A stretch of 12,317 bases of DNA from Promethearchaeota archaeon (GTDB lineage: Archaea > Asgardarchaeota > Lokiarchaeia > Sigyniarchaeales > SOKP01): contig JAHPZI010000025.1 in the NCBI GenBank assembly GCA_019058295.1, forward strand, positions 1 through 12,317, written 5' to 3'. The position numbers were made by a program, and so were the translations under genes. How positions within the stretch are numbered: position 1 is the stretch's first letter; each line of letters begins with the position of its first letter. The notes under the pieces were generated by a model that searched no databases, was not told the DNA's origin, and saw only the letters and a list, made by a program, of their open reading frames with translations. Below, piece after piece: positions 8,936-10,523 of the stretch.

Positions 8936-10180
8936 TTACTCTATTTTAAGCCCATATTTTTCGAATACTTTTGCCAGTTGATCTTTTGCGAAGTTTCTCA
9001 TAAGGTCATCCATTTTTACCATAATATCCTCTTTCTTAGTCGTTCTATTATTACTTATCCTTCCTGTGGGAATTTGGGTTAAATCATGAGCCCAACTATA
9101 CTCATCATTAAACGTAAACCATGTCTCTTTATACCCTTTCTGTTGTCCTCCATCTTTCGCTAAGGGTTTTTCTTCAATTGGTACATCTGGATCTGGAGCA
9201 TAACACCAGTCAAGAATAACCCATTCTAGCCCACGCTCGCTATCAGGGCGATCAGCTAAATAAAGACACCATGCATGACCTCCCAACTCAGTATTAGATG
9301 GAGCAAACACAGGATCAGTTAGCACTCCACCTCCAGCAACCTTTACTCTAAAAGATGGAATTCCGGCATTTATTAATAAGCTGGCGGTTAAAATCGCTCC
9401 ATCCTCACAGTCACCAATCCCAGATTGAATCGATTCAAATGGAAACTGCCAGAATTCGGGAACTTCTGCTGTTTCCTCATCATATTTATACTTAAAGAAC
9501 CCGTTTACAAAATCTTGTATGGTTAATGCAGTTTCATTAAAAGATCCTTTTAACAGTTGAGCTTGCTCAATTACATGGGCAAGAATGGCATCATTATTTT
9601 TAATAAATGATTTAACATCCGCATCAATTTGTTTATAATATTCCTCTCCTCTTAAAGCTCTACCGGTATATATAATAGGTGCTTTTTCATATTTATCATT
9701 CCAATAATCTGGTCCATACTCTCCATAATCTTCCTCGGGCTTTTTAGCTGGTGTTTTTTTAGGTGTTTTTTTCTTTGGCGTTGTTTTCTTTTTTGGTGTA
9801 GTTCCTGATGTTAATGCTGTTGCCTGTTGAATCCAATTATTTAAATCATTCAAAGTAGGCATTTTACTAGCTAATTCCTTTTTAAATTCTTTCATTCTTT
9901 CTAATGTATTCTTAGCATTTCTTTGAGCAAATTCTTTGACTGAATCAATCCCAATTTTATTTAATACGTTCGCAATTTTGTCTCCGACACCGTCTATCCT
10001 CATTAAATCCGCGAGTTCTTGAAATGTATCTATCATTTTTACTGGAATTCCCGTTTTTTTTGCTAACTTCGACATTTGACTCTTAGTTAAATTTAGTAGA
10101 TCCTCAATCTGGGAGTATCCTTCTTTTATTAGTAAGTTTGCGTACTTTTTACTAATTGCTTCTACATCCTTAATATTCAT
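8936..10180 (-). CDS. DUF4332-type tandem helix-hairpin-helix domain + Lys/Thr/Pro-rich linker + transglutaminase-like (BTLCP/LapG-like) cysteine protease domain
   Basis: aa 1-123: IKDVEAISKKYANLL..EG...IEDLL / ADLMRIDGVGDKIANVLNKIGIDSVKEFAQRNA / MPTLNDLNNWIQQA (DUF4332 pattern). C-terminal YKYD...EFWQFPFESIQSGIGDC258EDGAIL, GGH302AW, WVILD324W form a Cys-His-Asp triad. Confidence 0.85.
   Translation of the reverse strand: MNIKDVEAISKKYANLLIKEGYSQIEDLLNLTKSQMSKLAKKTGIPVKMIDTFQELADLMRIDGVGDKIANVLNKIGIDSVKEFAQRNAKNTLERMKEFKKELASKMPTLNDLNNWIQQATALTSGTTPKKKTTPKKKTPKKTPAKKPEEDYGEYGPDYWNDKYEKAPIIYTGRALRGEEYYKQIDADVKSFIKNNDAILAHVIEQAQLLKGSFNETALTIQDFVNGFFKYKYDEETAEVPEFWQFPFESIQSGIGDCEDGAILTASLLINAGIPSFRVKVAGGGVLTDPVFAPSNTELGGHAWCLYLADRPDSERGLEWVILDWCYAPDPDVPIEEKPLAKDGGQQKGYKETWFTFNDEYSWAHDLTQIPTGRISNNRTTKKEDIMVKMDDLMRNFAKDQLAKVFEKYGLKIE
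9740..9802 (-). repeat. Low-complexity coding repeat TTPKKK-TTPKKK-TPKK-TPAKK
   Basis: Read directly from the translation; synonymous codons vary between copies (ACA CCA AAA AAG / ACG CCA AAG AAA / ACA CCT AAA AAA). Confidence 0.9.
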
Positions 10181-10364
10181 TTTATATTCCCGTTAGTTTT
10201 AATAAGAAATTATGTTAGCATTCCTTTAAAATATATATGAATCCTGAATAATCCGTATGAGTTCAAAGAATTAATAAAAATTATGATTTCTAAATATATT
10301 TAGATCTTATTTGAATGAATTAAGTATACAATTACAAATTTTTATAAGTGTGGAGGGAGTGGGA

Positions 10365-10394
10365 AATCCGAAACTCGAGGAGATCTCGAAGATT
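10365..10394 (-). other. tRNA intron 2, 30 nt, T-loop position 59/60 (near-canonical BHB)
   Basis: Outer helix = T stem GTGGG/CCCAC, central helix TTCG/CGGA, bulges AA^A and TT^T, internal hairpin TTCGAG-ATCTC-CTCGAG. Removal restores the 7-nt T-loop TTCGAAT. Confidence 0.9.
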
Positions 10395-10441
10395 TTCGAA
10401 CCCACGAAGGCCTTTGCCACTGGATCTTAAGTCCAGCACCT

Positions 10442-10469
10442 ATGATCGGTCTTGACCCATCAAGATCGT
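10442..10469 (-). other. tRNA intron 1, 28 nt, D-loop position 21/22 (relaxed BHB)
   Basis: Central helix GGTC/GATC, bulges AA^A and AT^A, internal hairpin TCTTGA-TGGG-TCAAGA. Removal restores the typical archaeal Leu D-arm GAGCCTGGTCAAAGG. Confidence 0.85.
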
Positions 10470-10523
10470 TTGACCAGGCTCGGTAATCCCTCCGGTTATT
10501 TTATACCAGAAAGAATGTTGAAA

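Follow-up and report, generated by a model that had tools for sequence, protein, structure and literature searches.

The window, a stretch of 12,317 nucleotides analysed at its full length, carries a tRNA-Leu(UAA) gene at positions 10493..10351. It lies on the minus strand, which a preliminary description of this DNA had left unstated, and consists of three exons separated by an intron in the D loop and another in the T loop (Table 1). The gene forms a GC island (42.5% GC, compared with 18-26% in the flanks) within an ORF-free gap between 10180, where a gene for a 414-aa protein ends, and 10708, where small ORFs begin. The 414-aa neighbour contains a transglutaminase-like domain in addition to DUF4332 and HhH domains. 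The host genome, a Promethearchaeota MAG, has a size of 3.2 Mb, a GC content of about 30% and a completeness of 79%; the Asgard host suspected earlier is thereby identified.

Table 1. Positions of the tRNA-Leu(UAA) gene parts and of further features in the host genome (G000) and in two relatives of the same genus (G002, G006). Positions without a genome prefix are those of the window.
Feature	Position	Strand	Description
Exon 1	10493..10470	minus	24 nt; acceptor 5' strand GGAGGGA, U8, D-stem 5' strand, D loop to A21
Intron 1	10469..10442	minus	28 nt; D loop, 21/22
Exon 2	10441..10395	minus	47 nt; D-stem 3' strand, G26, anticodon arm, long variable arm, T-stem 5' strand, T-loop 54-59
Anticodon UAA (34-36)	10427..10429	minus	between U33 and G37; loop CUUAAGA
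Intron 2	10394..10365	minus	30 nt; T loop, 59/60
Exon 3	10364..10351	minus	14 nt; U60, T-stem 3' strand, acceptor 3' strand, A73 at 10351
Intron 1, 3' part	10448-10458	minus	GGGUCA(A)GACC
Neighbouring gene	8936-10180	minus	414-aa protein
tRNA array	G000:C22:30303-33335 (L031:10303-13335; L034)		3 kb; 27 intronless tRNA genes for all 20 amino acids
Insert in rtcB, L131	G006:C13:33250-33750		after position 208
Insert in rtcB, L132	G002:C3:15780-16280		after position 209
Candidate Gln(CTG)	G000:C25:57932-58137	+	30 nt removed; blind scan
Candidate Val(GAC)	G000:C14:94463-94669	+	40 nt removed; blind scan
Candidate Cys(GCA)	G000:C28:121751-121939	+	30 nt removed; blind scan
Candidate Ser(GGA)	G000:C30:119981-120196	+	24-nt anticodon-loop intron (ARAGORN) and deleted 29-nt segment; blind scan
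Candidate SeC-like (TCA)	G000:C30:102571-102761	+	35 nt removed; blind scan

Removal of the 28 and 30 nt yields an 85-nt product. ARAGORN identifies it as tRNA-Leu(taa), the cloverleaf being complete and the variable arm long. The call comprises a 7-bp acceptor stem, a 3-bp D stem with G13/A22 in addition, the anticodon loop CUUAAGA, the T loop UUCGAAU and A73. The nucleotides U8, A14, G15, G18G19, U33, G37, C48, U54-U55-C56, A58 and A73 can be read directly from the product. It has what defines a class II tRNA-Leu: the cloverleaf, a 7-nt anticodon loop with U33 and a purine at 37, A73 and the tertiary nucleotides. The class II tRNA-Leu(UAA) proposed earlier, obtained by excision of these two inserts, is the molecule found by ARAGORN and again by a blind scan (below). 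The boundary of intron 1 can be slid by 1 nt with an identical product. Inspection of the gene sequence revealed no intron at 37/38, as had been described. The anticodon UAA reads UUA, plus UUG by wobble. Downstream of exon 3 come CAC and a T/A-rich tract; the gene has no encoded CCA.

The intact gene escapes detection. ARAGORN found no tRNA in the intact window, and Rfam at gathering scores gave no match in it. In the E-value mode of Rfam, tRNA-Sec is the sole model to align, over the gene from end to end (10493..10352, 18.6 bits), leaving 41 nt of the D region and 32 nt of the T region unaligned, at the places of the two inserts. A match to MIR2655 in the same mode was rejected as AT-rich noise. 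The expectation that standard annotation would overlook the gene holds for the two tools applied, ARAGORN and Infernal/Rfam. In the blind scan, up to two segments bounded by 4-bp-helix/3-nt-bulge ends were deleted from the genome's GC islands, and each resulting variant was submitted to ARAGORN. All six accepted variants of the real island were called Leu(taa). The variant with consensus loops has exactly the boundaries given before, while alternative boundaries lead to loops that depart from the consensus, being shorter or longer. Dinucleotide-preserving shuffles of the island, with about 2,350 variants each, did not produce any tRNA call (0/100).

Other islands of the host genome gave candidate tRNA calls in the same scan (Table 1). 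They are individually unchecked, and some are doubtful, e.g. an Asp call on contig C8. The Rfam tRNA model detects 15 tRNAs in the relative G007 (99% complete) and 27 in G006 (98% complete). In the host genome, about 13-16 tRNAs were detected outside the tRNA array of contig C22, mostly intron-bearing. These low counts indicate that most host tRNA genes of the genus are cryptic to standard models.

Geometry of the splice motifs

Both inserts were evaluated with a BHB geometry in which each strand consists of a helix, 4 nt, a 3-nt bulge and a helix, with the cut after bulge nucleotide 2. The 4-bp helix and two 3-nt bulges of the preliminary description are present at both inserts, with one G.U pair in each central helix. 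The description needs qualification for the D loop, where the motif is relaxed and is not the local minimum-energy fold. Cutting after the second bulge nucleotide leads to the consensus D loop GGUCAA|AGGUG and the consensus T loop UUCGAA|U, the restoration that had been claimed.

Intron 2 has a near-canonical BHB motif. Its outer helix is the T stem GUGGG:CCCAC (5 bp). One of the four pairs of the central helix UUCG:CGGA is U.G, and the two bulges read AA|A and UU|U. Within the intron, UUCGAG/CUCGAG forms a hairpin, with a small internal loop between hairpin and bulge. The minimum-energy fold slides the register by AAA:UUU pairing, at a small energy difference.

The motif of intron 1 is relaxed. 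In the central helix, GGUC of the exon (G18-C20a) faces GAUC of the intron, one of the four pairs being G.U, and the two bulges read AA|A(C) and AU|A. The inner helix GAUCUUGA/UCAAGACC contains an A.C mismatch and forms only after a slip of 1 nt; a strict in-register h' test gave h' = 0. Only 2 bp form the outer helix, in competition with the D stem. The BHB register reaches -7.4 kcal/mol (with the D stem), compared with -11.6 for a local fold of exon GGUC with intron GACC, and is thus 4 kcal/mol above the local minimum. The cloverleaf is absent from the minimum-energy fold of the whole precursor, and the BHB of intron 1 from the local one. Minimum-energy folds were treated as uninformative because the BHB motif is recognized by a protein, yet they were counted against the motif.

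Intron 1 contains the core GGGUCAAGACC, conserved throughout the order. Towards its 3' end the intron has the sequence GGGUCA(A)GACC, near-invariant across the order (L002-L030), and a similar sequence, GGGGUCAGAGAC, is present in another family. This 3' part is unchanged where its partner CUUGA mutates. Its GACC can pair with the exon GGUC that also forms the splice helix, and in L017 this core alone makes up the entire intron (16 nt). The core GGGTCAAGACC occurs once in the genome. In a blastn-short search of both introns against the genome for signs of mobility, only chance matches of 11-13 nt and no other copy were obtained.

Conservation and turnover of the introns

Full-length orthologues of the gene were found in 33 of the 41 related genomes searched. 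From these relatives, 26 Leu(UAA) orthologues were extracted and aligned to the spliced reference with free introns; the genomes are related, and the counts are not independent. Exon 1 is identical in the same-genus orthologues L001-L005. The survey of relatives suggested in the preliminary description distinguishes the two introns: the D-loop insert is present at the same position in 26/26 orthologues, with lengths from 16 to 66 nt, and the T-loop intron is patchy.

The alignment bears on the register of intron 1. A tetranucleotide 2 nt upstream of the 3' junction pairs at four of four positions with the invariant GGUC in 23/26 orthologues by script, and in 24/26 by eye: L021, misplaced by the aligner, also pairs completely. 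Five different intron tetranucleotides form this pairing (GAUC, GAUU, GACC, GACU and GGCU), whatever the spacer after the conserved GACC. The anchoring of the pairing to the 3' junction is the main argument for the register proposed at first. Processing in the other register, with GGUC:GACC as helix and the 3' cut 2 nt after GACC, would enlarge the D loop by 4 nt, and an insert that is not removed at all would enlarge it by 28 nt. The local minimum-energy fold favours GGUC:GACC, and the conservation of GACC with the preceding GGGUCA(A) throughout the order goes beyond what the BHB alone requires. Some D-arm insertions without a canonical motif are possibly not introns, according to passages of a 2026 preprint (10.64898/2026.10.13.758758). 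The additional nucleotides of this register vary among the relatives in length and sequence, however, with none in L017 and L020, four in most orthologues and six in L025 and L027. Such variation is hardly expected in a structurally constrained D loop. The tetranucleotide anchored to the 3' junction still pairs with GGUC whatever the spacer, and the intronless orthologue L145 of another Asgard family has a plain D loop. Processing in the other register, or retention of the insert, is therefore unlikely, and excision of 28 nt at 21/22 remains the preferred reading for intron 1.

The T-loop intron occurs in four of the five other same-genus orthologues examined and in a few others. Its central helix at 59/60 is fully paired in 6/7 cases, and the variants CGGA, UGGA and CGAA still pair. 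The T-loop introns of L008 and L009 have unrelated hairpin sequences. The orthologue of the single-contig genome G032, located at about 785.6 kb, likewise has inserts in both the D loop and the T loop. In other relatives, position 15/16 and the variable arm harbour additional inserts, with up to four per gene. The intron is kept in G007 (89% identical) and in G006 and G002 (about 76%). The closely related genome G005 (L005, on G005:C150) shares 93% identity with the window across 2.2 kb; precisely the 30 nt of the T-loop intron are missing from it, resulting in the loop UUCGAAU. It has instead a 30-nt insert in the variable arm, with the central helix GGCA:GCCA paired at all four positions and a 4-bp intron helix. 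Compared with the window, this locus shows a recent, precise intron loss and gain. In the comparison with G006, identity amounts to 84/85 positions in the exons, 26/30 in intron 2 and about 76% in the flanks, with several changes in intron 1. Exon identity next to diverged introns and flanks is the pattern expected of purifying selection.

Among 20 sequencing runs listed as containing the locus, none is recorded as RNA. DNA contigs from four sediment runs were compared; they show lineage variation at the intron boundaries and nothing on splicing. In contigs of run X5, from marine sediment, position 10364 is joined directly to TTCGAACCCACG. DNA without the T-loop intron, at precisely the predicted junction, thus occurs in nature. 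The exon 2 block has by far the highest word depth in the sediment metagenome contigs, and loose ends are located at 10395/10398 and at 10460.

In other families, the Leu(UAA) genes of three have a D-loop insert at the same place, and those of one are uninterrupted. The tRNA-Leu(GAG) genes of one other Asgard family (L135, L137, L138 and L141 in G069, G060, G050 and G082) carry a 21/22 D-loop insert. It ends in ...CCGAUUAA|AGG or ...GACUAA|AGG, similarly to the Leu(UAA) intron at its 3' end. As an intron site, 21/22 may predate the divergence of the leucine isoacceptors, or may have spread among them.

Splicing enzymes and the decoding of UUA

The host genome encodes two EndA paralogues (PF01974) of about 201 aa each, on contigs C1 and C26; the two subunit genes span L040:1168-1770 and L041:1429-2031. 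The C1 protein (alpha) has its best match in the catalytic subunit of A. pernix (3P1Z_B, 3.9e-36). Each of Y125, H133, K164, R157 and W183, plus K44 and R46 of the loop, is matched by its equivalent in the host protein. Its SKPR is aligned with the EKPR of 3P1Z_B residues 43-46, and the equivalent of K44 is K59. The closest relatives of the catalytic subunit are Promethearchaeota proteins, the nearest with 96% and 94% identity. The C26 protein (beta) matches M. jannaschii EndA best and has Ser or Ala in place of the catalytic His. The alignments predict that the host EndA belongs to the (alpha-beta)2 type with the Crenarchaea-specific (L1) loop, composed of a catalytic and a structural subunit. 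In A. pernix, K44 and R46 are located in the Crenarchaea-specific loop, and the exchange K44A abolishes the cleavage of a D-loop intron (PMC3241643). By analogy, the K44 and R46 equivalents of the alpha subunit are linked to a broad specificity. An (alpha-beta)2 EndA with L1 loop has been reported for Asgard archaea (Kaneta et al., 2018; PMC5829648), and the two-subunit enzyme is published as widespread among them. The relaxed-specificity EndA postulated for this host agrees with a predicted two-subunit enzyme whose catalytic subunit keeps both loop residues.

RtcB was not found in the 79%-complete host assembly. It is present in all four same-genus genomes searched, and its absence from the host is therefore read as incompleteness. 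In two relatives of the same genus, a 29-nt insert containing stop codons splits the rtcB coding sequence (Table 1). The BHB of this insert is clean: the central helix is UUGG:CCAA, the bulges read AU|A and AA|A, and the intron hairpin has 9 bp. Removal of the insert restores the motif GGVGYDINCG; the rtcB of G007 is uninterrupted. The mRNA of the ligase would then depend on EndA and RtcB itself. A literature search found no paper on BHB introns in protein-coding genes of Asgard archaea.

UUA had been noticed as very common in the AT-rich genes of this stretch. It is the commonest leucine codon, with 49.8% of the leucine codons and 46.6 per 1000 codons, and the sixth most frequent codon overall. 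The preliminary description considered splicing essential unless an intronless copy of the tRNA gene exists. The tRNA array on contig C22 (Table 1), organized in two divergent blocks, includes such a copy, a second and intronless Leu(UAA) gene. Splicing is therefore not provably essential in this genome, and essentiality in the strict sense did not hold. The array gene and the window gene have only 56/85 positions in common and are therefore not recent duplicates. The flanks of the array look chromosomal, with DHQS-II, GH57 and a DNA methylase. Arrays of the same gene order occur in some relatives only: at about 67-76% identity in G003, G009, G024 and G012, and at 91% in G005. The C22 array did not match any of 50,697 phage records, and PHROGs recognized only the DNA methyltransferase adjoining it. 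In IMG/VR, a 23-nt exact pattern of the array had no match and a flanking protein of 655 aa had no relative. In the nearly complete genomes G007 (99%) and G006 (98%), neither an array nor any Leu(UAA) gene besides the orthologous two-intron gene was detected; their class II covariance hits are Leu(CAG) and Ser. In G006 and G007 splicing must, by inference, work.

These genomes bear on a second alternative, in which the window gene is a decaying or silent relic, functionally replaced by the intronless Leu(UAA) of the array. In favour of it, both genes are present in the same assembly. A relic is not expected to keep invariant exons and intact splice motifs while introns and flanks diverge. The relatives G006 and G007 retain the two-intron gene with no array to replace it, and the supposed substitute is alike at only 56/85 positions. 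A relic is very improbable.

Proposed maturation and known systems

The reading preferred here takes 10493..10351 on the minus strand as the host's own functional tRNA-Leu(UAA) gene, spliced by the pathway outlined below, with a probability of about 0.88. Transcription would yield a precursor of about 143 nt, extended by leader and trailer. The 28-nt intron at 21/22 of the D loop and the 30-nt intron at 59/60 of the T loop would be released, and the three exons would be joined by an RtcB-type ligase. Addition of CCA would complete an 85-nt class II tRNA decoding UUA, the most used leucine codon. Transcription, cleavage at exactly the 21/22 and 59/60 bonds, ligation and translational use are deduced from the sequence. 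A chance GC-rich island or another structured RNA would account for the failure of ARAGORN and of Rfam at gathering scores to call the intact island, but such a non-tRNA reading is effectively refuted by the ARAGORN call on the spliced product, the full-length orthologues in 33/41 related genomes, the shuffles without a single tRNA call in 100 and the end-to-end similarity to the tRNA clan in the E-value search of Rfam.

A wider picture can be drawn, and it is rather doubtful. The Loki-type lineage might be a further, so far undescribed hotspot of BHB micro-introns, in most host tRNA genes and in some protein genes including the rtcB of two relatives. The array might serve as a splicing-independent back-up or mobile decoding set, and the intron core GGGUCA(A)GACC as a functional switch gating the maturation of the most used leucine tRNA, in place of a passive role.

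The gene itself is solid, and Asgard archaea are already known to have tRNA genes interrupted in this way. The importance of this one gene lies chiefly in annotation: neither ARAGORN nor the Rfam tRNA model sees the tRNA that reads the commonest leucine codon. With tRNA genes cryptic to these tools, automated counts badly understate the gene set, as illustrated by 15 hits in a 99%-complete relative. The D-loop position 21/22 of tRNA-Leu is an old intron site, conserved across at least one order. In the T loop and the variable arm, introns are gained and lost between genomes of 93% identity, and the losses are exact at the predicted junctions. This turnover fits the repeated gain of introns at splice-competent sites published for Asgard archaea and leaves that picture unchanged.

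Multi-intron tRNA genes with introns at non-canonical positions are described for Asgard archaea in the parts consulted of three reports (PMC5829648; PMC11291895; 10.64898/2026.10.13.758758), which also state that D-arm introns of Asgard tRNAs are missed by tRNAscan-SE. The view that such genes are best documented in Thermoproteales is out of date, since Asgard cases and their EndA have been published. The Asgard cases (Kaneta et al., 2018; Valentin-Alvarado et al., 2024; Goswami et al., 2026, preprint) resemble the present gene in the Asgard host and in several non-canonical BHB introns per gene. They likewise share D-arm introns missed by annotators, an (alpha-beta)2 EndA with L1 loop and introns of about 20-30 nt. 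As far as these publications were consulted, they focus on Atabeyarchaeia, Freyr/Jordiarchaeia and single representatives, and neither Lokiarchaeia nor Promethearchaeia is mentioned in the passages searched of the 2026 preprint. The locus described here comes from a family of Loki type; one genome of this family, 99% complete, yields only 15 covariance-model tRNA hits. In the consulted parts of the published papers, as here, splicing stands without experimental demonstration.

The tRNA genes of Thermoproteales, according to the portions consulted of the work on them, contain two or three BHB introns in the D-arm, the T-arm and other positions, and rely on a broad-specificity heterotetrameric EndA (Sugahara et al., 2008). 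These organisms belong to another phylum, and the host here is mesophilic with about 30% GC. In contrast to what those portions describe, neither of the present introns has another copy in the genome.

For A. pernix there is biochemical proof that APE-EndA, which bears the Crenarchaea-specific loop (CSL), cuts the D-loop BHB intron of pre-tRNA-Thr(UGU) (Hirata et al., 2011; PMC3241643). The gene described here codes for another tRNA and is known from its sequence. Its D-loop motif differs from that of A. pernix by a G.U pair in the central helix and by weaker flanking helices. Both systems have a BHB intron in the D loop and, as predicted for the host, the same enzyme architecture, and K44, required for D-loop cleavage in A. 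pernix (PMC3241643), corresponds to K59 of the host protein.
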